62,396 nt of DNA, filler included, from Collodictyon triciliatum (GCA_043381765.1; 13 parts of 13 records of this genome joined end to end with filler, not necessarily neighbours in it), one strand, 5' to 3'. Shown: positions 4,897 through 62,396, numbered from the whole stretch's first letter. Translations and numbers: made by a program. Notes: generated from the sequence alone by a model not told the origin.

Positions 4897-4996
4897 NNNN
4901 NNNNNNNNNNNNNNNNNNNNNNNNNNNNNNNNNNNNNNNNTTAATTAATTAANNNNNNNNNNNNNNNNNNNNNNNNNNNNNNNNNNNNNNNNNNNN
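4897..4996. other. Artificial contig linker N44-TTAATTAATTAA-N44; also at 9892, 14884, 19873, 24861, 29849, 34837, 39820, 44805, 49784, 54785 and 59768
   Basis: The same 100-nt spacer, with stops in all six frames, recurs about every 5 kb. Confidence 0.98.
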
Positions 4997-9891: not shown

Positions 9892-9991
9892 NNNNNNNNN
9901 NNNNNNNNNNNNNNNNNNNNNNNNNNNNNNNNNNNTTAATTAATTAANNNNNNNNNNNNNNNNNNNNNNNNNNNNNNNNNNNNNNNNNNNN

Positions 9992-14370: not shown

Positions 14371-15239
14371 TGTTTCTTAAATTTTATCACACGCTTACTT
14401 ACATAATTTGGTTTATAAAACGATGAGTTGAACAAATATAATTCCTTCAGGAAGCATTTTGAATTTTGTCCACGAATGCAATAAGGGGTTTGCAATAATG
14501 GGGAAAAAACATCAAATGTGTTTTTGGTATATCTTGCGAGTTAAAAACGCAAAGAAATTTAGACTTCTGCTCGAAATTCTCGGACTAGCTACTTTGATGG
14601 ATGTTGTGAGAAGAGCTTCTAAATCGCAACCTCTGTTCCACGATACCATCCTTGGTAAACCTGGCCGATTTGATGACAGATAAGTTGGGCATGGCGAATT
14701 GGTCTTTACTTTGTTTCGACACACAAATTATATTTACATGAAATATCTGGTTAAGTTTTGGTGAAATATTTGGCGAAATCATCCCGCCCTCCTCTGAATG
14801 ATTCGACGATAAATGGACATTTGTTAGTGGTGCTCATAGCTAGGCTGATGGCTTAACAAAATTTTTAGTCTCAGTTTTCTCGTNNNNNNNNNNNNNNNNN
14901 NNNNNNNNNNNNNNNNNNNNNNNNNNNTTAATTAATTAANNNNNNNNNNNNNNNNNNNNNNNNNNNNNNNNNNNNNNNNNNNNAAAAGAAAAAAGAAAAA
15001 AGAAAAAAGAAAAAAGAAAAAAGAAAAAAGAAAAAAGAAAAAAGAAAAAAGAAAAAAGAAAAAAGAAAAAAGAAAAAAGAAAAAAGAAAAAAGAAAAAGA
15101 AAAAGAAAAAGAAAAAGAAAAAGAAAAAGAAAAAGAAAAAGAAAAAGAAAAAGAAAAAGAAAAAGAAAAGAAAAGAAAAAAAGAAAAGAAAAAAAGAAAA
15201 GAAACACAAAGAAAAGAAAAAGAAACAAAAAGAAGGTTA

Positions 15240-18549: not shown

Positions 18550-19872
18550 AGAAAGTGATGGCGGATGTGCTATCAGAGGAGTATAGAGACGGGGGATAGA
18601 TAAAGGAGAGAGAAGGGGATGAGAAGGAAGAAAAAAGGAGGTAAAGACCCTGGGGCTTGATAAGAGGCCCAGGGATTCCTTTCAGGATAGGACTTGTGGT
18701 GAAGTCCTTGGGAGAGGGAAAGTAGCGGGCTTGATTATGTTTAGAGGGGAGTGGAAGAGGATGGGAATACTACTTTGGTGGCGCAAGGTGTTGAAAGGAT
18801 GGTGGACAGGAGAAGTTCGCATTGAGTTAGAAAGGCACTAGGTCGAGTGCAAAGACAACTTCTCTGCATAGTTTACGCACTTCCTTCCAGACCGCAGAGC
18901 GGTCTTTAGAGTATGTTTGTTGCATTTGGGACGTTTCCCAAGTGCTGGTAATGACCTTGGCCATGACATCGATGTGGTTTGTGGGCGAGTTTGGGTTTGA
19001 GAGTCGACTGATACGCCCTGCCCAAAGGGCTCCAAGGACGTGGCTTCTCAAAAGTGCGAAGTTTTCAAGCCCGATATCAAGAGGGTTGCTGTCTCCGATG
19101 AGGGCTGCCCGGATGGTGAGTTTGTGTAATTTGGTCGAGGGTACACACATCAATCGCATCCCAAGCTTCCACGCCTGTTTTGCAATACTGCATTCAAAGA
19201 AAAAGTGAAGCAGGTAGTCTCTGTCATTATTACAGAACGCGCATGTTGATGGTTGCTTTGTTATCTTCTCGAGTCTTTCTCCTGTGAGAAGGTTTTTCCA
19301 CACGATATTCAGGAGGAGTACTCTTAGGGATGGTCTCATGAAGTTGATTTGTGTTTGTCTCCATACATTAGGCCAAAAAACATCCTTCTCACCGAGTTCA
19401 TTCCAGAAATTAATAACTTTAGGACGAGGAAGTGTTATTGGGAAGAACTTTGTCTCAAAGGATGGTGTTCTGACTAATGAAAGGTTGATTTCATTGTTTG
19501 ATTTAAGGAGGAAGAGAGTCGGCGATGGAATACCATTCATCCATTCCCGGCGAGGCACCCATGCATTCTTCCTGGTTTGTACTGCCGTGGTAATTCTCAC
19601 TTCCTTAACATCAATTATTGGTCCATATGCAATTTGAGGGGTACTGTCATCACTAATATAGGCAGGCTGAATTCCGATGGTTTGGTCCAAGTTTATTTTC
19701 TTGAAGAAACCAAACTCTCCATCGTATTCCACCAATGTGTCCTCCTCTAGTGAGATATTTTCCAGTTTTTTTGGAATCAGTTTAAACCTCTTAAAGAGGA
19801 GTTCCATTCTCTGTCGGCAGAAGGGACCCATCATTTTAACTGCTTGTTTAATGTTTTTTTCATTCCAGATGA
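18550..19872 (-). mobile_element. Non-LTR retrotransposon (L1/Tx1-like) ORF2 3' end with zf-RVT, plus 3' UTR
   Basis: Intronless ORF 18827-19834 containing VWKNLLTGERL...CAFCNNDRDYLLHFFFECSIAKQAW, followed on the element strand by a pyrimidine-rich UTR with a stem-loop. Confidence 0.8.
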
Positions 19873-20068
19873 NNNNNNNNNNNNNNNNNNNNNNNNNNNN
19901 NNNNNNNNNNNNNNNNTTAATTAATTAANNNNNNNNNNNNNNNNNNNNNNNNNNNNNNNNNNNNNNNNNNNNGTGTGTTGTGTGTTTGGGAGTTATGCCT
20001 TTTGGGGTTCATTGTTTGTTTTGTTTCCTTCCCTTTTTTTTTTTGACTTGGGTTTAGTTCGTTTTCTT

Positions 20069-24410: not shown

Positions 24411-25258
24411 ACTGAATAATGATATAATTAATGTTTAGACATTCACGTTCTACAAAAATGCCAATGTAAATAAAATGTTCAAGTCTCAAAAGGTAAGAAA
24501 GGAACAGGAAAAGAAAAGAAAAAAAAGAAGATAGAAATTACAGAGAAGTGATATTTTAATGCTTACATGATACAATCATCAAACATGAACATGTGTTTTT
24601 GCTTAAATGATCCACTTTTGTAGAATCTGACTGGCCCTTCTCGTATAAACCTCCGCATTGGGTCAAAAAGTTTAACCTACATTAGTTACAATAGTTTAGT
24701 ATTATACATCGATCAGTTATTCAAAAAAAATTCAAAAAGTTATTGCCATATTTACATATCCCCCCCCCCCCCCCTTTTTTTTTTTTTTTTTTTTTTATCT
24801 TAAAATAAAAAATTTTTTTAATTTTTTTTCTATATCTCCCTATACTATTTTTTTTTTTTTNNNNNNNNNNNNNNNNNNNNNNNNNNNNNNNNNNNNNNNN
24901 NNNNTTAATTAATTAANNNNNNNNNNNNNNNNNNNNNNNNNNNNNNNNNNNNNNNNNNNNATCTGTGTGTCTGTGTTATCTATCTGTGTGTCTGTGTTAT
25001 CTATCTGTGTGTCTGTGTTATCTATCTGTGTGTCTGTGTTATCTATCTGTGTGTCTGTGTTTTCTATCTGTGTGTCTGTGTTTTCTATCTGTGTGTGTTT
25101 TCTATCTGCATGTATTTTCTATCTGTGTGTGCGTGTGTGTTTTCTATCTGTGTGTGTTTTCTACGTGTGTTTTGAGTGCAAGAAATGGAGGAGTAATGTG
25201 GTCGGGCGTAGATAAGCAAACAACGGCGAGAAAAAATACAAGAAGCTAGGCAACAAAC

Positions 25259-40770: not shown

Positions 40771-42663
40771 ATGACGAAAAGAAAACGTCTTCAGTCTCAG
40801 AATCTAAAGTCTGTAAAACCAGACTATAGTAATATGAAAACATCTCTAAAGTCGATTGTTAAGAATCTGGATGGCTATGACAAAATCAACGATACGGTTT
40901 ATCGTGTCATAATTCGGTTACCGACACTTATCTGTCTGCAAGATGTTACCTAATGAAATCACAACTCCCAACAATCGATGAAAAGTTTTTTTTTTTTTTT
41001 TTGTACGCTTTAAAGACTGTCGGAATAGTTTCATAAGATAAAGCCAGCATCTCCACCATCCTGTACAAAATTGAAAGGAAGAATAATAATAATAAAAAAA
41101 TAATCCACATATGAGAGATGACATGGTGACATTTTATCTTAATGATTTTCTATTCCTTTTGTCCCAAGAAGAACGCTTTCCGTTGGTTGGACTGTCTCAT
41201 ACATTACCGTACTTGGCGAAGCAAGTGCTAACAGCTTATCATGATAACATTAAGGAGCATTTGGTAAAGAGGCTACTGCGCTTTATAAATCAAACAGTTC
41301 CTAAAGATGAGAATATTACGGAAGCTATTAAAAAGCCAGAGTTACCAAAGTTGAAAAAAAAAGCCATCTTCAGGAAACTCGAAATACCGAAACAATACAA
41401 AGGATGGACAATGACGCATTTGCATCATATCATTCCCAGCGATATTGTAAATTGTATCAAATAAATCGTCAAAGTCAATCCAAATAAGTACATTCCATAT
41501 CCGATTTACATGTATCGCATTTTTGAGGACATTGGAACCAAACGGTTTCAACCAGTTTCTATAAGAACTACCAATATACGTGTCATTTGCTCTAGATACT
41601 GCATGTTTGATAGTTCTATTAGTATTATATGGAAAACATTATTAATGAAGAATATATCAGGAAGCAAAGAGACACTTTGGGAAAAGTTATTTGAAATGAA
41701 GAAGAGGGTCTTTCATCAAACAGACTACATTTTTAAATAGATGATACAAACAGACGGTGGTGTGGTGTCATTATTGTTTGAGAAGAAAGGTATTTCAAAT
41801 TCAAGATTCAAATATAACCAAATGCCCCAAGAATATGTTTATACAGATGAACTTTCCAAAGGCAGTTATCTTTACTAGCGAAAAAAAAATAATAGTTGGA
41901 GTGGACGCAGGCAAGTTTAATTTTGTTTACATGGTGGGTGAGACAGGTAAGTAATCACGCTACACGGCTCACCAAACAAGACATGATAGCAAATCTCTTA
42001 AAAATTACAAAATACTCTTGCGCGAGAAAAAAAAAGTACAATTCTTTAGATTTATTCATGACGACAGATTTATAAAGTGCTGTTTCTTTTGGTCATATGA
42101 CTTTTGAAGAGAATAAGCAGTTTGAGATATTAAGAGTATCTTTTAATGGATTTAGAGACAGAACTGAGTAAACATAATTCATGCACAGTCGATTATGGAC
42201 AATTTCGAAAATATGTATCTATGAAATTAAGATTCCAGATAGAACTATCCAGATTTTATGAACGAATAACTTTTCGAAAGATGAGATGGAGATAGTATGT
42301 AAATACAAAAAGAAGTGAAGAATTGTTTATGGACCGAATCGAAAAGACATTTGGCAAGGATGTTGTTCTGGCGTATGGAGACTGGAGCAGAAAATGTCCG
42401 ATGAGCCATTTTATGCCAACAATCGGAAGGGGATTACGAAAAATAATATCCAAACGTTTTGAAACAGTTAGCGTAGATGAATTTAGAACCTCCAAGATGT
42501 GTTGCAACTGCGAAAAAGAACTGGAATATATAATACTGAAAGGAAACTCAAAAAAATGTATAGATGCCTCATATGTAAAGTATGCAATCGCCCAGAAAGC
42601 AAACAAAGTGTATTCTTGACAAGGGACTTTAACAGCGCTAATAGTATACTCAAGTTCTTTTAA
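40771..42663 (+). mobile_element. Fanzor1 (eukaryotic TnpB-like RuvC nuclease), full length but disrupted by stops and frameshifts
   Basis: N-terminal KTSLKSIV..KINDTVYR; EHLVKRLLRFIN; IQTDGGVVSLLF; RuvC-I IVGVDAG (D at 41904); LAYGDWS; RuvC-II VDEFRTSK (E at 42479); zinc finger CCNC..CKVC; RuvC-III TRDFNSANSI (D at 42625). Confidence 0.88.
41043..41100 (+). repeat. Same dispersed repeat, inside the Fanzor coding sequence
   Basis: GCCAGCATCTCCACCATCCTGTACAAAATTGAAAGGAAGAATAA is nearly identical to 44320-44365. Confidence 0.75.
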
Positions 42664-42830
42664 TCCTTCAAAAATGCATACACCTCTCTCTAAAAAACAG
42701 GCTGTCGAGCCTTTCCTGGCAGCCTTCACCACTACACGACCTCTGTGAAAATAGTGGTGAGACCTTGGATACTAGCGCACCAAGTTTGCCAATCGACAGA
42801 TGGTATACCCCTAGTTGAAAGTAAATGGCC
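42664..42830 (+). ncRNA. Candidate Fanzor omegaRNA scaffold region
   Basis: Three tandem stem-loops just 3' of the Fanzor ORF: AGGCTG/CAGCCT (42699-42725), TCACCACTA/TAGTGGTGA (42726-42760) and CTTGG/CCAAG (42764-42784). Confidence 0.4.
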
Positions 42831-43332
42831 ACAAGCAATGACAGATAATCATTCTTGGTATGATTTGTTCACGAATGCACATGCTGGGCTACTTCGTAAG
42901 TCAATCAACTGCAGCTTCAACCGCGACCTCGACTGAACCGAAACAAAAACCTACATCCAAAATTAACAAAAAACAAAAAACAAAAAACAAAAAACAAAAA
43001 ACAAAAAACAAAAAACAAAAAACAAAAAACAAAAAAACAAAAAACTATTGATGAACTTAAGGTAAGTTATCTTGTATCGAAGCTTCAGAGACCCAATAAA
43101 GAAAAAGGATTTTATACAAGAGTTTGATAAGAGGATTTGGGTTTGAAAAGAGAATCATAAAAGAGGCATAGCTTATAACATAGTTTCAAGTGAAAATTAA
43201 GAAACAATGAGGTGTCAACGAGAAGTCACAGCACACAAGACAAAAACAAAATCCTCAGAGAGAAGAATATGAAGAGAACGAGACTGGATATATCTTCAAG
43301 AGACTGTCATATCTCATGTCTCTAGAAGTATC

Positions 43333-44516
43333 CTAGGCGCTGCTCTGGAATCGCACACCGTCTCCTTCGTTATCTAGATGGCCTTTTTCTTCCGATTCCC
43401 CGGCTAGCTCAGAGTCAGTTTCACTGCTCGATTCATCATCGTAGGCGCGTTGCTCTCGACTGCAAACGGCGAGTAATTCTGCATCGAGAATTCTTCTTGC
43501 AAAATACCCAACGTTGTCATCCGTATCCTGGTTCTGTTTTAAAACCGTCATTTTGACGTGAAAAAATAAGAAAAAAAAGAAATGATTGATGCAAAATATC
43601 GTTACATAGGTATATTGGTACCGACCTGCCAACTACACACAAAAATGGCCCTTTCTCTGAGACTGTTAATCGTTTCAGGTTTACAGGATTCGTTGAGTCC
43701 TTGAATGGCCTCTTCATACTCTTTGAGAGTGAGCTCTGCCTTGACTCTCTGCGGATTAGAGTTAAAATATAAAAGGTACTCTATCGAATAGAGACGGATA
43801 AATCTGTCTAGTACATCAGCTGGCACAGAGAGCCTTACACACAGAAAAGAAAAAGGATGTATAGATAACCTTGTTGAGAAGAGACCTCGGTCGCAAGTTG
43901 TGTTTTCGCAAAACCATAATAAAGTTTGAAATTGTGATAACATCATCAGCACCTGCATTCAATTCGCGAAACATACCCAAAGCCTGTATATAATGAGGAT
44001 TACTACATCGCGATAATATTTCCAAGGAGAAAAAAAATTAAGGAGAGATTAAGTCACAACTTTGAATCGAATAAAGAAAAAAAAAGGGGAGTTCAATCCA
44101 TAATAAGTTTTATATGATTAACGCGCCAAGCAGATAAATAGAATATTCGGTTACTGAAAGGATACATACGTACCGCTCTAAGAGATATGGTCGAGTCAAT
44201 AGCTTGAACAGCTGCCATAAACTCTTCGAAACATAATACTGCATCACGATTGATATCGGCTGCTTGAAAAAATTGGTCCATTGACTAAAAAAAAAATTAT
44301 AAAATAGTTTATTTGAATAGCCAACATCTCCACCATCATGCACAAAATTGAAAGGAAGAATAAAATTTTTTTTTGTTTATCTGAATGAAACACAGTCAAA
44401 AGGGTTCCCACATTAGTTGTGGTATTCCAAAATATAGTCAATACCTTCTGGTCTTCCGTATCTAGCTGAATCCAAATATTGAGGAACATGTGAGTGAGAA
44501 GGTCAAAATCGATACT
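43333..44516 (-). CDS. EF-hand protein, 3' exons
   Basis: FQAADINRDAVLCFEEF and MFRELNAGADDVITISNF lie in separate exons. Stop at 43333. Confidence 0.65.
44320..44365 (+). repeat. Same dispersed repeat, in an intron of the EF-hand gene
   Basis: GCCAACATCTCCACCATCATGCACAAAATTGAAAGGAAGAATAA. Confidence 0.75.
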
Positions 44517-45526
44517 ACAAAGTACGAATATACGTAAATGATAACTTTTATTCCATTATGGAAGATGTACAATTCTTTGGAAAGCAAACATGAACTTCAA
44601 ACCTATCACCCACTGAGAATTGATAAATCTGCTTCCTAATATCTTCCCTTATCTAATAAATATCAATCTATTTAAATACATTGAACATAGTGTTTTTATA
44701 TTCTCAAAAGAAAGAGAAAGAGAAAGAGAAAGAGAAAGAGAAAGAGAAAGAGAAAGAGAAAGAGAAAGAGAAAGAGAAAGAGAAAGAGAAAGAGAAAGAG
44801 AAAGNNNNNNNNNNNNNNNNNNNNNNNNNNNNNNNNNNNNNNNNNNNNTTAATTAATTAANNNNNNNNNNNNNNNNNNNNNNNNNNNNNNNNNNNNNNNN
44901 NNNNAAAAGATAAAAGATAAAAGATAAAAGATAAAAGATAAAAGATAAAAGATAAAAGATAAAAGAAAAAAGAAAAAAGAAAAAAGAAAAAAGAAAAAAG
45001 AAAAAAGAAAAGATGGGACAATTGAAAAAATATCGATTAACTAGAGACCCCCGCGCGGCCCAGTATCTATTGTTAACCAAAGATATTATCAGCCATCAAA
45101 AAAATATAATAAACTAATAGCAAACATTATCTACCTAGACCAGGTATAACCGCCCCATCATTTCTACCAAGCATAATACCACTCCCCTTCCAACGCAGAA
45201 GAAATCACGCCCAAAGCACCGCCCCTGTAAAACAACCTGAATAAATAGCCACCCCATCCAAAGCGTCGGTCATGCGCTCGCTGGTTTCTTTTTCCACTAC
45301 CGCCTGTCACTTGCAAGTGGTGGCACTCCTTGACAGCATTTTCTTGACTCCTTATCCTGAACTCCTCTTTCATAAACTCCCTTGGAACAGCACGTTTTGC
45401 GACTCAGCCACGCACCATAACGCAGCCCCGTACACATTCAGGCTCGGCAAACCACAGCAGCCAAGGCGAAGAGCCCATCCGCGATTGATTCTGCCTCGAT
45501 AGGAAAAAGCAGCGCACCTGACTGGA

Positions 45527-48500
45527 ATGAGTGTTGATCTGAGCCCGTACCGCGTCTTTGGGGTGTATGTCTTCCGCAACGACACGTCCGCACAGATTGC
45601 ACAAAGCCGAAGCCCTGCGAATGTGACTCCCGCTCAAACAGCGCCGGGCACGCCGTCCTCGGCTCAGCTCTTGGTGTTTGGCCAGGGCGATACGCTCCAC
45701 GCTGCCGTCAGCCACACGCCCGAGACAGCAGATGAAGCGCTGCTGCGTCCTTCGAATCAGGCAGCACAACACAGGTCGCTGCATGTGCAGTCTGCTTCGC
45801 CTCCGCTGATAACAAAAGGTTAATCCCTTTTCTCCTGTCCCACTTCATTTCTTTTAATGCATGCCGACATGATAGACATTGAATATATATACAAGGTGTT
45901 GTTGCTTGTTGCTTTGTCTTATATGTAAGAGAAACTAGGTGATACGTAAACTGATGTCAATATTTTCTTTTATCTTTGTACCGTAACGCTCATAGTTATT
46001 TTCTGATTTATCCGCTTGTTGTTTATTTAAGTTATTTCCCCTAGTTTGTGTGGTATTGATAAACATCAGGTGTATTTGTTGGCTTCATTGCTATTCATAA
46101 GCATACCATTTTGTATTATATCTAGTAATATTCCATCGCAATGATATTCTCGACCGAATTGATGGGCTCTTAAACTCCTTGAACCACGAGAAGCTAGTCC
46201 AAGTTCAACTGGATGACATATTTTCTCAAAGTGATTTTTTATATTATATGCACATACATCATGAACACGTACATCTTGTTGTCATTCTATATGAAGAAAT
46301 AAATTAATTCCTCAGATATTCGTAATTTACAATCTTATATCCCTAATTTTTTTAGATAAAAAAATTCTAACATCATATGGTTCATGGGTATTTATTAACA
46401 AGTTTTATAATATGATTTTCTTCAAAGTATGAACCAAGAAAAAAAAAAGGAGATTGTTTCTTCAAACACTAGCATTGATTACATATTGAAAGATTTTTCA
46501 GACAAGTTATGTAATTACTGAACCTAATATGTTTTTCGATATCGCTTTGAAAACCGCAAACAAGGTCGAGTTCTTTGCCAACGAACATGTGACCATCGGA
46601 GCCACACTTAGTCAAGGAGTTAACATAATGTAGGTTAAGCTTGAGTCATATTCTAGTATTTTTAGCGACTCTATTACTTTCCTATAAATATATATTTTCC
46701 TCTTTTACAAATTTCTTTTCATAGAGTTCTAGTGTTGTCGGACAGAGGATGCTCAACTATAAAAAATCGCACTTCTAAGCTGATGAGGTATTCTATTTGA
46801 TGATAATACGATGCAGTATTTTTCAACTCAACAATTATGATCAACTTCTCAACAATTTTAATTACTTAATCATCATATATTTAATCTTATAATCCATTTT
46901 TAACNNNNNNNNNNNNNNNNNNNNNNNNNNNNNNNNNNNNNNNNNNNNNNNNNNNNNNNNNNNNNNNNNNNNNNNNNNNNNNNNNNNNNNNNNNNNNNNN
47001 NNNNNNNNNNNNNNNNNNNNNNNNNNNNNNNNNNNNNNNNNNNNNNNNNNNNNNNNNNNNNNNNNNNNNNNNNNNNNNNNNNNNNNNNNNNNNNNNNNNN
47101 NNNNNNNNNNNNNNNNNNNNNNNNNNNNNNNNNNNNNNNNNNNNNNNNNNNNNNNNNNNNNNNNNNNNNNNNNNNNNNNNNNNNNNNNNNNNNNNNNNNN
47201 NNNNNNNNNNNNNNNNNNNNNNNNNNNNNNNNNNNNNNNNNNNNNNNNNNNNNNNNNNNNNNNNNNNNNNNNNNNNNNNNNNNNNNNNNNNNNNNNNNNN
47301 NNNNNNNNNNNNNNNNNNNNNNNNNNNNNNNNNNNNNNNNNNNNNNNNNNNNNNNNNNNNNNNNNNNNNNNNNNNNNNNNNNNNNNNNNNNNNNNNNNNN
47401 NNNNNNNNNNNNNNNNNNNNNNNNTTTTTTTTATCATAATAGAACTTTAGACTCAGAGCTCAGAGATACAACACAAAGAGTACCATCGTATCGAGATTTG
47501 AATAAGTGTTCTGATAGGTGCTTAGGTACAAATCATTCAAAATCACCTAATTTATGTTGCTGTGGTAACTTATCACCTTTTGTGACTAGTTATATGTCGA
47601 AGATATATATCTTCCAGCGCAATATATACAATCAATGGTGCTCACATCGCAAATTTATGGTCTTGTATATTGGAGATTATATCAGATTACATATCGAATT
47701 GGAGTTCAAGTTTTCTGAAGTGCTTCCTCATCACCATATTGCTTTGACGAACGAGCACTCTCTTGAATCGGATAGACCGCTATCTATGATATCTGATCTG
47801 GCGGATAAAGTGAGTTTTCTTTGGAAGTTCGATGTATCTTGAATAAAAAATAGATAAGTAAATAGGTAATAAATGAGCCAGTAAATTGATAAATAACCCA
47901 ATAAGTTAATGAATAAGCCAATAAATATTAAATAGACAAAACTGTACCTCAATCATCTTTAGCTGAATTCTATAGCTCGACCAATCACAAAAAGATTAAT
48001 CAGTGCATTTATCATTCAACGAATAAATATTCAATTTGAAACGTTTCCACACAGCTCCGTATACTAGGTATTTGGCCAAAAGATTCCTTCTGGCCAACAA
48101 CGGCGGATATGAGCCCACAATTTCATGAATCGGGCTCTTGGAGATTACAAAACTCTGTTGCCACAACAACTGTGTGTTTATTCATATAGTTATATCATTC
48201 GCAGCAGCCTGAGAAAATTATCGATATTTAAAAGTGACCACTGAAGCAACACATGCTTGACTCAATCCAATTCACAATATTTATCCACCTTTACGATTGA
48301 AATTCACAACACCGCACTCATTAGATCCAGTACAATTTATCTGATTATGCCTTATCACTTCGAACAGAATACTTTAGTCGTGAAAGAGACCCTGTAAGTA
48401 TGGTGTCACTAAAAATTATGTGCAATTGGATAATGTGGCGAATATCGCCCACGGATGTAAAATTCCCTTTAATATTTAACTTACTGATGACATGTGCAAT

Positions 48501-49783: not shown

Positions 49784-50162
49784 NNNNNNNNNNNNNNNNN
49801 NNNNNNNNNNNNNNNNNNNNNNNNNNNTTAATTAATTAANNNNNNNNNNNNNNNNNNNNNNNNNNNNNNNNNNNNNNNNNNNNCTTTTTCTTTTTCTTTT
49901 TCTTTTTCTTTTTCTTTTTCTTTTTCTTTTTCTTTTTCTTTTTCTTTTTCTTTTTCTTTTTCTTTTTCTTTTTCTTTTATTACCCTAACTTTTTTCTCTC
50001 TTTTTCTCTTATTTTTTCTCTTATCTGTTTTCTCTTATCTTGTTTGCTTTTCTTTTTTATTTTTGAAAATAATTCGCAATTACAAAGTTTTACTGTGGAT
50101 TTATCATATTTTGGAAATAATATTATTTTTGAATAGTACACTGCTTGAAGCCAGAGCAAAAC

Positions 50163-52397: not shown

Positions 52398-54884
52398 ATA
52401 ATATCATTTTGCAATAAATCCCAGGGTGATTACGCGCAATAACTCGGCATCATTCATCCTCCTTCATAATCAATCTCGCTTCGAGGAACTGATGCTCCAT
52501 CAATCATTCAAACATGATAAACTGCGATAAAGGTAATGCGGCCCACAAAACGCCTCTTGAAAAACGATGACTGTGTTGTACACCTTCGAGAAAAGTCATA
52601 ACCAGTTTTCTGCTCTACTAATCTCTTGGGAAAGAAAAAGGCAGCCAACCGCAGAGTATGATGGAAGTACGGAGCTACTGTCGAAAGGATGTGACTCTTT
52701 TATCGGTGAATCCTGATTGCAACCTCGGACTCTTATATCATCAGAAGAAAAAGGGAAGAAATGAAGCTGTTTTTATAAAGACTGCGCCCTCCTATCTCGC
52801 AACTTATAATTATATTCATTTGTTAGACATGGCATCAGAAAGATGCATATTTATTGAACAGCTGAGTTTGGACAGAGCTGCAAGATGTATTGTATCCCTG
52901 TAAAAGGCGTATTCTTTACAATCAAATGCAAGCGAATGAAACCTTCGGCAGAATCATGAGTAACAAAGCCTTTTTTTTTCTTTTTTTTTTTAAGGAGGAC
53001 GGAGAAAAATAATCCTTTCTGTTTGGGATTGGCAAAATAACTTTCTTGCAGATACTCCAAAGATGCTGACATCCAGACTTTTCCTTCCAATACAATACAA
53101 GTTCAATTGCACAAGAGACCTATTCGCACCAATAAAGGGAAAGAAAGAAGAAAAAGGGAAAAAAGAGACACCATTCTCGTAAAAAAAATAATCGCATTTG
53201 TAGGATTCTTGCATGACATTCAGCTCCAATAAACCCACTACCGACTCTAAAACCAATTAAGTGTTACGGATGACATGGGCGAATAATCGAATATTATCAT
53301 CAAACATGTCGCTTCGCTGACAACAGCCAGCACAAAGAGACAGAATCGGTACCGAACCTCTTTTTTTCGAAGATATCAGGATAGCCTTGCAATCACCCAA
53401 GATGTTGAAGCCTTCTTTTCACACCAACCGGATTTCATCAGTTTGATTATGTGATGTTGTGATGAATGATAATTTGTAAGTCTCGCATTAGATTTAAAAC
53501 AGTGTCTGACGATAGTAACATAACATGCAGCAATACAACCTCGTGGGCTCATTCAGATATGGTCGCTTCCATCAACTTATTTCTGCTGGCGTCGTTTGCC
53601 TACGAGTCAGACTTAAACTCAACCCATCTGCTGCTTATCCAACGCACTTCAATCGGTCTATCTTATGGCTCAATCTATTGATGTTTTTCCAAGCCAAGAA
53701 GGTAGCAAAAGAGAGGAAACTAACTGTAGGGGAAGGTTTTGTGTGAGTGCTTGATTTATCCACTTGTTGCTGGCTGCAAAATAAATTTTATTTCATGAGG
53801 AAATGGCAAGATATCTGAAAAATTAATGTCAGAATATGATTTTGAAAGACGGTCGAGGACAGGCAGTTATCCCAATAAAAAAAAACTTTCTAGTTAAATA
53901 TAGACACCCTTTTAAAATAACAATAACCGAAAGTACATATATCAACCCGAGCATCACCATCTATTAGAACAGTTTGTCCGCCGTTGGGTATCTTATCTTA
54001 CATAGACAGAGTTCCCAATCAAAGAGAAGACCTAATCCAGGGAGTTCGATTCTTTAAATTGTATTGCTAATTATATTTCTTTGTTTTGAAATTCGTGCGG
54101 TTCAGCAAATACAACTCAAAGGAATTTGATAGAATTGTGAAAGTAAATATCGTATATGTGAGTATTACAAATTATTATTAAAAAAGAATGATGGTAGAGA
54201 ACGTGTCCATTTTGAATAGCACGAACTCTTGGGCGTACTGCAACAGAAGTCGAGGTAGGACGTTCTCTATTGTATGGACTATGTAGAGCAATATGCAAGG
54301 AACTGATGATGTGGTCTACAAGATTACGTTGACATATTTGATGTTTATCATTACTAGCATTATATATATATAGTTGAAAGATGTGCTTCTGGAAACAAAA
54401 CTAAGTAAAATAAAGAGGCTGTCATTTCATGCCTACTCTTTTTTGATAGGAGATGACAGGGAGTTAAATAGAATAATTTTAAATGATTTATGAAAATAGC
54501 CTATAATTCGCACTATTTTTTCTTAATTTTAATACTTCGAGGTCTATAAAAAATCATATTAAAACAAACCCTTTAGCCATTAATACACTTTTATCTACGC
54601 TGTTTGGCCTACCGCTATTTCGAGAATATTTAATGAGGATTTGTTTTGATGGTGTTATTGCCACATCCTTTCAATAGTATTAAGACAGGACAGAAAAAGA
54701 AAGTAAATTATAGAAAACTCAGACTCAAAAACTAATTAAAAATTATGCGTAAATTTCTGTTGTTTTGTTGTTTTGTTTTTTTGTNNNNNNNNNNNNNNNN
54801 NNNNNNNNNNNNNNNNNNNNNNNNNNNNTTAATTAATTAANNNNNNNNNNNNNNNNNNNNNNNNNNNNNNNNNNNNNNNNNNNN

Positions 54885-59766: not shown

Positions 59767-62396
59767 ANNNNNNNNNNNNNNNNNNNNNNNNNNNNNNNNN
59801 NNNNNNNNNNNTTAATTAATTAANNNNNNNNNNNNNNNNNNNNNNNNNNNNNNNNNNNNNNNNNNNNTTTTATTGTTTTTTTATTGTTTTTTTATTGTTT
59901 TTTTATTGTTTTTTTATTGTTTTTTTATTGTTTTTATTCGACTCTGCTGAATTCATAAATATTACTCTAAATCATCGCTCTATGGCTATTAAAATAGCAC
60001 ATTCAGACTTATGGATACGTAGAGTCTTGAAAAAACTATTCAGTATCCTTCAAGAATAAAGTCCCCCGAAGAATGGGGACAACTCTATTGAGCACAAACA
60101 TCTATATGAATTATCATCCCAAATCTATGTGACACCAGGGCGAGACTATGCGATGCACTCTCGTGATTAATACTGCTTTCAGCTTATTCAAGAGATATTT
60201 GGACCCAGCATAAACGGTATCCAGAAACAAAAGCACTATGTGGAGCCATGTTGGTTTTTTTTTTCCATAAAGTCAATGAATGACTCATGCGTCTCCAACC
60301 CAACTTCTACAATCATACACCATATTTGATGGCGATACGCTAAATTACATCAAGTAGACATTTAATCTTAATTGCTCTCTTGCTATCTTTATATGTTTAC
60401 ACAATCATGGCAAGTGGCAATTAGGGAACGCGAGGCAAATGAATGCTTGATTTCCAAATAGATTCACCATTATTTACCCTTATATCCCGTCAATATGTCG
60501 TCTCACTCGCCCAAAATCCAATCGCCTCCGCTATTTCTCAATCGTCTTTTCTCTTCAATCATCAGGCACAAACCATCTACCATCTGTAATGCGCACAATT
60601 GCCTCTTTTTTGTAACAGTATTGATGAGGATAGGGCTGTTTTAATTAAAGATAGAAGTCATGCAATATTGTTGCATCTAATCTACATATGATACGATACT
60701 CCACTCGCGTGCTTTTGTGAATAACAAAGAGTGGCAACATTAATTGAGTGCAGTAAGCGTTCGAGATTATGAAAAGCATGAAAGGAAATATTACGCTAGG
60801 TATATATAATACGTTTCTCAGTATTCGATTTCCTTAAATTTTAATAATACATTAATTATATTTTCCAATTTATAATATTTCCATATTTGATTATTTTGAT
60901 TTTCTACGAGAATTCTTAGAATATATCTAAAATAAGATACTAAAATTTATAATTCAGTAAATAAGAACCAATGTGAAGAAAGTTTTGTTTTTTCCTAATT
61001 AGGGTGATAAATTAGCCACAATTATCGAACCATTCAAAGAAATACAGCAAATTCGAACAAAAGACACTCCAGCTTTTAGATAACTAGCGCTATTTTAACC
61101 AACGTTGCTGTTCTGTTTCGGGTCATTAGCTATTTTTACTATCGTCATAGCTCTCAGTAGCCCAAATTTCTTGGACTTGTGGGTTGTTCTTGATTAGCGC
61201 ATGTGGTAGATGTGTGCATTCTGAATACCGAACATGCTGCGTAACTCTGTGGAATCGGTACGTATAATAAGAATGTTACATGCAATCAAATAATTGCACC
61301 AGAGAATATATAAATCGAACAATAATAATATCAAAAAATTATTATCTATATAATATCCGCTTTTGTATATTAGGGATTATTTCTATTTATGGAATTATTT
61401 GGATGCATTTGCTTCAATCCAATCTGCTTTTGTTCATATTTACGCATTATGAAAGAGTTTTTTTTGCCTTTCCTCTTACTGTTATATTAACAAGGAAGCA
61501 AAGCTGCAGAGTTTCTGTCAGAATAATTATTATGCTGCGTATGCCTCAGGGATGTATGGGCAATAAGGACAGAAATCAACAATAGACTGAGCAGAAGCCT
61601 CAAAACCCGCAAATTATAACAAATGGAATGAGAGATGGTTGAGAAATGCCGAGCTTACGACTGTCTGGTCTCCTCCATATTAGTTCAGCTTGCTCGAGGA
61701 GGATGTTGAACTCTAAGAATAAGAGTTCTCACATGCAACCAACTCGCTATCACCGTTTTCTTCCCAGTGCTAGTCTCTCCACAGTAGTGTCTTCCGCCCG
61801 CGTTTGCTCTTTACAATACGCACTTAACACGCTCCTTTGTGTGGCATAACCTCGCCACGCTTTGACTAGGGATAAGGAAAAAGTATAGGTAAAGTTTTAT
61901 TTTTTAATTCCAATGTAGAAACATAACTGATATCAATTTGATTATCATTTTTTTCCTTTATTCGATTCTAAGAATTCCGATTATCATTTAAGTTGATATT
62001 GTATATTTATTATCCACTTTTGTATAATTGACACCAATTTGGTGACTTCCCATTCTGTGAAGCGTATTTCAGTTACGTGCGCCACAGGCTCGCGGAGGAA
62101 TCAGGTTTTTTCTCCGACACAACATATTAGCAATCTAGAAAAAGCTACTTCTATTCAGGATAAAAAAAAGCGGAGTACAAATTCTTTTGTGTTTTCTTTA
62201 TTCAGTTGTGGGGTGCGATAGGGGTGTGCGTGGGGATGGGGACAGAGATCAGCAAGGGGTCAGGCGAATGCTACATAACCCATGAAATGAACGAGGGAGT
62301 GGGGGGGGGGGGGGGGGGAAGGTTGGGGCGGGGGCCTTTTGGGAGAAATGCCGGCCCCGCCCTGGGGGGCATTTTTTTTACCCTTGCCAAACATTT

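Follow-up and report, generated by a model that had tools for sequence, protein, structure and literature searches.

The window analysed here, 62,396 nucleotides of DNA assigned to Collodictyon triciliatum (GCA_043381765.1), carries a Fanzor1 pseudogene on its plus strand at 40771-42753. The pseudogene is colinear with residues 1-648 of P0001, an intact Fanzor1 homologue of 648 amino acids. We are confident that the stretch lies in a eukaryotic nuclear genome and is a dead, full-length Fanzor1 gene copy, a decayed member of a multi-copy mobile-element family.

A full-length Fanzor1 gene broken by stops and frame shifts

A frameshift-aware alignment to P0001 spanned it end to end, from residue 1 on the ATG of 40771 through residue 648 on 42751-42753, and gave identical codons at 373 of the 637 aligned positions, a figure that is somewhat optimistic as P0001 itself guided the stitching. 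In tblastn, residues 1-642 of P0001 fell on 40771-42736 through the frame chain 1>3>2>3>1>2>1, with at least seven net frame switches. The fragment 42134-42616, read through one TAG, matched the Fanzor1 proteins of Parasitella (E 1.6e-11), Spizellomyces (E 2.4e-07) and Guillardia (E 7.5e-07) among PDB chains, and apart from these three no chain matched it below E 0.2. Sequence searches of PDB with either this fragment or P0001 returned no Fanzor2 or TnpB chain. Genetic code 6 was applied only for reading through stops in searches, which then matched well. When the stitched reading, with X at each break, was compared with a profile of nine relatives that excluded P0001, it scored 478 bits (E 3e-145); none of 200 shuffles was reported against the same profile at E <= 10. 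Pfam searches of nine single open reading frame (ORF) fragments gave only a sub-threshold match to Cas12f1-like_TNB (E 0.009). Within the window, tblastn with 12 homologues found no second Fanzor copy outside 40600-42900 below E 0.02.

The first-pass annotation, made from the sequence alone, had described a full-length, frame-broken Fanzor1 relic and proposed a frameshift-aware alignment and a profile comparison as its check. The end-to-end alignment with P0001, the profile score and the matches to solved Fanzor1 proteins bear that description out, and the stop-to-stop ORFs of the plus strand at 40756-42663 yield the peptide pieces that it quoted. It had placed the relic at 40771-42663; the start holds, and the end has to be moved, as the relic runs about 90 bases further, to near 42753.

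The named motifs, from KTSLKSIV through TRD, are all present where they had been placed. The start codon opens a basic N-terminus, MTKRKR (40771-40812), where P0001 has MKKRKR. This segment resembles a nuclear localisation signal and may have served as one; such signals are among the features reported in Fanzors (PMC10530073). KTSLKSIV and INDTVYR lie in frame at 40756-40953, and TDGGVVSLLF follows from 41741. The RuvC-I aspartate is the GAC at 41904-41906 in IVGVDAG, located by sequence and by the family alignment, and the family-invariant proline of DPG is replaced there by alanine. GDWS, invariant in the family at all four residues, occupies 42377-42388, and the conserved glutamate of DEFRTS is the GAA at 42479-42481. 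The zinc-finger cysteines, CCNC at 42500-42511 and CLICKVC at 42565-42585, are split by a one-base loss near 42548; loose ends of sister contigs at 42555 (see below) read KKVYRCLICKEC in frame. The RuvC-III aspartate is the GAC at 42625-42627 in TRDFNSAN. All three catalytic acids are thus still encoded, as the first-pass annotation had stated, and in a ten-homologue alignment (A1) they fall on D364, E555 and D604, all of them invariant, as is R603.

In Fanzors the RuvC-II glutamate is described as relocated (PMC10530073). The glutamate of DEFRTS (E555) probably represents this relocated residue, and G521 of GDWS would then occupy the former site, judging from the aligned sequences. A published Fanzor1 motif, D-X(125,275)-[TS]-[TS]-X-X-[C4 zinc finger]-X(5,50)-RD (Bao and Jurka 2013, PMC3627910), is found complete in the stitched reading. 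The aspartate at 41904 is followed about 195 codons on by T-S (42488-42493) and K-M, then by cysteines at 42500 and 42509 and at 42565 and 42574 (with a further one at 42583), and about 13 codons past the last cysteine by R-D (42622-42627).

Against this preserved layout stand the lesions. The count of frame shifts was 13 with P0001 as guide, 11 under a harsher penalty and 10 with each of two other guide proteins, and the core in-frame stops were unchanged across guides and penalties. Five in-frame stops fall in homologous codons, each one base change away from the homologue's codon: TAA at 41462-41464 (Tyr in homologues), TAG at 41738-41740 (Tyr or Phe), TAA at 41952-41954 (Lys), TAA at 42073-42075 (Gln in P0001) and TAG at 42293-42295 (Gln), those at 41738, 42073 and 42293 being placed by the frameshift-aware alignments. 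Two or three one-base shifts cross the PCHIRLDTACLI block at 41579-41645. An insert of about 57 bases at 41039-41095 has no counterpart in homologues and contains six stops, TGA among them. Its core (41042-41086) recurs at 44319-44363, 3.3 kb downstream on the same contig, as a 45-base direct repeat that is 93% identical.

No open reading frame able to give a Fanzor1 protein is present, and with 10-13 shifts, five homologous stops and an insert with six more, the relic is filed as a pseudogene and not as a working member of the family. Neither a protein nor an element can come from it, and it is drifting neutrally. Of the family's 51 invariant positions it keeps 44, and of the 40 near-invariant ones 28. 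A 44-row tree pairs the relic with P0001 as its sister (SH-aLRT support 100) and gives it a tip branch of 0.54, versus 0.23 for P0001.

Sister copies and intact relatives

To survey sister copies, assembled contigs of four public runs (X1-X4) were aligned to 40700-42800 at a likeness of at least 80%. Run X3 contributed 351 contigs, X4 148, X1 23 and X2 one; their likeness to the window ranged from above 99% down to below 90%, and up to 15 distinct contigs lay over one position. Two contigs from different studies match the window without a difference, X1 record 1 over 40718-40975 and X2 record 9 over 40743-40976. Because both include the frame shift at 40903, this lesion is not one assembly's quirk, unless both contigs derive from the source sample.

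At several lesions the sister contigs carry the undamaged reading. At the first stop all covering contigs (two in X1, ten in X3 and six in X4) have T at 41464, giving TAT, and at the third the codon is AAA in all covering contigs (11 in X3 and five in X4), through an A at 41952. Most sister contigs are without the extra base at 42141-2, two X3 contigs have an additional T at 40897, where the relic is missing a base, and loose ends at 41590, within the block of one-base shifts, and at 41882 and 42555 read in frame and resemble P0001. Two short proteins in public databases extend this picture. P0033 is an open sister fragment of 143 residues, 77% identical to the relic over 141 residues, with Tyr at the 41462 stop. 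P0031 (136 residues, NCBI source, from a 582-base contig) is another copy, broken by a frame shift other than those of the relic and by a retroposon tail inserted behind RDFNSAN. Because sister pieces differ at the relic's lesions and P0031 has lesions of its own, the Fanzor1 family is multi-copy and its copies have decayed independently. Sister homology extends over both ends of the surveyed stretch, so the ends of the element cannot be read from it. Of the words sampled from 40700-42800, no public run contains more than 12%, and no RNA run is among the holders listed; these figures carry no information on expression or habitat.

Searched against 5.8 billion protein clusters, 42134-42616 matched 12 longer proteins, the best being P0001, 72% identical there; among these clusters no protein of at least 283 residues exceeded 72% identity to the C-terminal part of the relic. 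P0001 and P0014, each of 648 residues and from ENA and JGI metagenomes, are intact and belong to the same sub-lineage as the relic; the contigs of P0001, P0014 and P0033 are at most 2.6 kb long. With phmmer, P0001 matched 3,147 of 1.84 billion representatives at E <= 0.001, 1,703 at E <= 1e-10 and 537 at E <= 1e-30, and the nearest other full-length representative of a 50% cluster is 48% identical to it. By these sequence comparisons the relic, P0001/P0014 and P0033 form what appears as a distinct Fanzor1 sub-lineage within a heavily sampled family.

The first-pass annotation had reasoned from the surviving catalytic acids that intact sister copies may exist and could give a new Fanzor from an unsampled protist lineage. 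Three surviving residues in a pseudogene are no evidence for intact sisters. Many sister pieces of 80-99% likeness do lack several of the lesions, which keeps part of the suggestion, while no whole intact sister was found in the runs surveyed. The claim of novelty is not shown: intact P0001/P0014 are already public and 537 representatives lie at E <= 1e-30.

The assignment of P0001 to Fanzor1 is shared by sequence and predicted fold. By sequence it matches GtFz1 (E 2.1e-28), PpFz1 (E 2.7e-24) and SpuFz1 (E 3.7e-23). For an AlphaFold model of P0001 (mean predicted local distance difference test score (pLDDT) 68, predicted template modelling score (pTM) 0.63), the top seven PDB matches were all Fanzor1 structures (E 6.7e-25 to 1.4e-22, template modelling score TMq 0.59-0.64); the fold match to solved Fanzor1 structures reached TM 0.64-0.67. 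Cas12f, TnpB and Fanzor2 followed only from E 2e-05 with TMq of at most 0.32, Fanzor2 at 5e-04 and TnpB at 5.5e-04 or above. Fanzor2 and prokaryotic TnpB are thus not the closest kin, as they gave weak fold matches only.

Tc1/mariner-Fanzor1 elements of the relatives

Profile scans with A1 located 65 metagenome loci and 14 IMG/VR loci of relatives, several of the latter on contigs of giant-virus metagenome-assembled genomes, including contigs of 254 kb and 173 kb. Comparison of the loci revealed two mobile units: one of about 3.3 kb bounded by 33-base terminal inverted repeats (TIRs), and a Fanzor-only unit of about 1.9-2.0 kb. The larger unit includes a divergent upstream ORF of 343-346 residues with DDE_3 and HTH domains, which identify it by sequence as a predicted Tc1/mariner-type transposase; this ORF adjoins Fanzor in 31 of 79 locus rows, duplicates included. 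The 33-base repeat, with the ends TTTACACC...AAAACGCC, is conserved across sub-clades. The Tc1/mariner-type architecture of TIR, divergent transposase, Fanzor1 and 3' element is seen at L003:3637-6953 and also at L004, L002, L005, L015-L018, L068, L070 and other loci. Elements with Fanzor1 inside Mariner have been described from giant viruses and oomycetes, together with a proposal of viral spread (Bao and Jurka 2013, PMC3627910), and an association of Fanzor1c with Mariner/Tc1 is among the reported observations (PMC10530073); the elements of the relatives agree with both.

The last ~125 bases before the right end of the relatives' elements contain two short hairpins and end in the right TIR. 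RNAalifold gave one of these hairpins; the other was set manually before its pairs were counted. Paired cells of the alignment pair in 86% of cases versus 59% in shuffles, with 35 double-sided changes, and none of 500 shuffles reached the observed values; slid controls gave 36-43% pairing. Published accounts place the guide RNA (omega/fRNA) between the 3' end of the ORF and the right repeat (PMC10432273, PMC10530073), a position that the putative two-hairpin element of the relatives fits.

At the relic itself these features were not recovered. No transposase had been noted on its contig by the first-pass annotation, and this is true, though the contig comprises just 4,885 bases and leaves only 850 bases upstream of the ATG before its end: tblastn of two relatives' transposases against the window gave a best E of 0.76, on another contig. 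The relatives' TIR, TTTACACCCTTGAACATTTAAAACGCCGACTT, was not matched in the window at up to three mismatches. Local alignments of three TIR versions, and of the upstream against the downstream flank, were no better than shuffles, and a repeat search around the relic returned low-complexity pairs only. When the flanking DNA was compared with 79 relatives' loci, only the coding segment 42254-42650 and A-rich runs matched. Rfam had no match on 39900-43700 at E <= 1 and none window-wide at gathering score, and no tRNAs were found. A covariance model of the relatives' 3' element (R1) found nothing at the 3' flank of the relic, and its best matches in the window lay elsewhere at E >= 1.7; as R1 was built from relatives only 41-47% identical, this miss is weak evidence. 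With both the covariance model and Rfam empty at this flank, the guide-RNA region of the relic is probably either decayed or different in kind. By eye, 42775-42885 resembled the relatives' arrangement of CAATCAGTTGATTTTACC, hairpin and TIR; the covariance model did not support this candidate and it was dropped.

The element type of the relic's sub-lineage would presumably match that of these relatives. By homology, the ancestral intact gene would have encoded an RNA-guided DNA endonuclease of about 650 residues with a RuvC domain of TnpB/Cas12 type. The guide of this enzyme, an omega/fRNA, would have come from a transcript of the gene's 3' end and the transposon's right end. Following the example of TnpB, the nuclease would cut sites without the element, and repair would copy the element back; this analogy makes cutting of vacant sites, after which repair restores the element, its likely role (PMC10690162). 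The ancestral copy would have moved as a member of a mobile-element family; the present copy has lost frame repeatedly and gained the short repeat insert.

Contig context, alternative origins and known systems

The window consists of 13 contigs of about 4.9 kb chained by N44-TTAATTAATTAA-N44 spacers, which lie at 4897-4996, 9892-9991, 14884-14983, 19873-19972, 24861-24960, 29849-29948, 34837-34936, 39820-39919, 44805-44904, 49784-49883, 54785-54884 and 59768-59867; a gap of 520 N occupies 46905-47424. Since short contigs have been joined, gene neighbourhood across the spacers is not real. The actual contig of the relic, bounded by artificial spacers, is 39920-44804 and starts in a microsatellite.

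A dispersed short repeat, consisting of CTTTGAATCGAATAAAGG and then a run of A (a poly-A tail behind an AATAAA signal), has four matches in the window against 0.05 expected. The motif search placed them at 40250-40276 (+), 40435-40461 (-), 44060-44085 (+) and 61955-61971 (-). Duplications border the first two: a direct one of 9 bases, AGCGGTTGC, at 40240-40248 and 40276-40284 around the first, and one of 16 bases at 40419-40434 and 40463-40478 around the second. These copies look like extremely 5'-truncated retroposon tails, and the same motif interrupts two sister Fanzor copies, P0031 among them. Downstream of the relic, a possible EF-hand exon on the minus strand at 44096-44284, DINRDAVLCFEEF, matches Pfam EF-hand_1 at E 3.9e-04, below the cut-off, and belongs to an apparently intron-split minus-strand gene. 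Other contigs carry ORFs with WD40/ephrin-receptor-like, GT92, NHL and zf-RVT domains. The zf-RVT ORF at 18830-19870 (-) (E 8.9e-09), truncated where its contig stops, probably represents the tail of the reverse transcriptase of a non-LTR (long terminal repeat) retrotransposon, and the minus-strand open frame at 29896-32487, of 864 residues and also cut by a contig end, combines a WD40 propeller with 11 ephrin-receptor-like cysteine repeats.

Given the viral relatives, the relic could instead stem from an endogenised giant-virus fragment or from direct giant-virus transfer, and not from a resident transposon copy. Fourteen relatives lie on IMG/VR contigs, including the giant-virus contigs of 254 and 173 kb, the relic-P0001 pair is nested in a well supported 27-row clade that holds six IMG/VR rows, and viral spread is part of the published account of Fanzor1-Mariner elements (PMC3627910). 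However, the IMG/VR and JGI loci reach at most 47% identity to P0001 over the full length, and the many diverged copies fit amplification within a genome. The contig of the relic has microsatellites, poly-A retroposon stubs with target duplications and the weak EF-hand exon, and, short as it is, no recognisable viral gene. We therefore regard a viral origin of this copy as unlikely; that viruses ultimately delivered the family would still fit a resident, decayed transposon copy.

Somewhat less likely again is contamination or mis-binning, in which case the contig would stem from another organism and be uninformative about the host of the window's other contigs. The window was joined artificially from 13 contigs of about 4.9 kb, and parts of the relic region occur only in freshwater or lake metagenome runs and two organism runs, each with at most 12% of the sampled words. 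Against this, the 17-base retroposon-tail motif recurs on the last contig (61955-61971) and links at least two contigs, and composition and microsatellite content are similar across contigs.

A functional gene whose breaks are introns, a variant code (TAA and TAG read as Gln) or homopolymer assembly errors is highly improbable: a GTAAGT lies at 41947, two shifts adjoin A-runs (41869-41878 and 42551-42557) and the five stops, three TAA and two TAG, gave good searches when read as Gln, but the alignment to intron-less homologues continues across every break, which are therefore not introns, with the 57-base insert as the sole unmatched block; the five stops face Tyr, Tyr or Phe, Lys, Gln and Gln, so that no single reassignment fits and code 6 was rejected as biology, the insert having a TGA as well; the 40903 shift is reproduced exactly by contigs of two studies; sisters differ at the lesions toward the homologue's reading; and 7 of 51 invariant positions are lost by substitution. 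Frames of 864 and 560 residues open under table 11 also speak against a variant code, these being on other contigs, which may come from a different organism than the relic's contig.

The reading of the relic as a decayed member of a resident mobile-element family has to be set against several points in addition to the optimism that guided stitching lends to the identity figures. The stops at 41738 (TAG), 42073 (TAA) and 42293 (TAG) show no sister difference among the rows listed and may be shared between copies. The copy number derives from assembled contigs of sequencing runs and not from the source genome, and X3 is possibly RNA. The contig is only 4.9 kb long, and its start, in a microsatellite, lies 850 bases before the ATG. 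That this copy belonged to a mobile element is argued from its relatives and from copy number, as no TIR, target duplication, transposase or guide-RNA relic was found with it.

Alone, the relic is of little weight, as dead Fanzor1 copies are expected wherever the family was once active. The Fanzor1 family, its transposon carriers and the giant-virus link have been described since 2013, and RNA-guided activity of Fanzors has reportedly been known since 2023. The value of the relic is as a pointer to a sub-lineage that is about 20% identical to the characterised Fanzor1 enzymes and was amplified in some freshwater eukaryote, with less-decayed copies and an intact 648-residue relative in public data that can be tested as nucleases. 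The relatives supply a clean picture of Tc1/mariner-Fanzor1 elements, with a conserved terminal repeat, a covarying two-hairpin 3' RNA element and a presence on giant-virus contigs. We suggest, tentatively and with the balance somewhat against it, that the relic marks a recently active Fanzor1 sub-lineage of a freshwater eukaryote in which intact copies remain and whose ends and guide RNA are its own, unlike those of giant-virus-borne relatives. If true, this would be a new, testable and compact RNA-guided nuclease system.

Among known systems, the composite elements PGv-1 of Phaeocystis globosa virus and PUl-1/PUl-4 of Pythium, as described in the source cited above for Mariner-borne Fanzor1, are comparable by architecture. 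The relatives at 41-47% identity share with them the divergent Mariner-like DDE transposase and TIRs, and include Fanzor-only derivatives, several on giant-virus contigs. The relic differs from a PGv-1-type composite in that neither transposase nor TIR is detectable in the window. P0033 is open where the relic is broken, and P0001, the nearest intact relative at 59% identity over its whole length, is intact. The solved proteins SpuFz1 of Spizellomyces punctatus (8GKH), GtFz1 of Guillardia theta (9CER) and PpFz1 of Parasitella parasitica (9CF0) are of the same family by sequence and by the fold of P0001. In contrast to these enzymes the relic is a pseudogene, and identity to them is only ~18-20% at the level of fold alignment with the P0001 model. 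They nevertheless share with it the layout of an aspartate, TS-x-x-C4 zinc finger and RD, with the glutamate in D-E-x-x-T-S.

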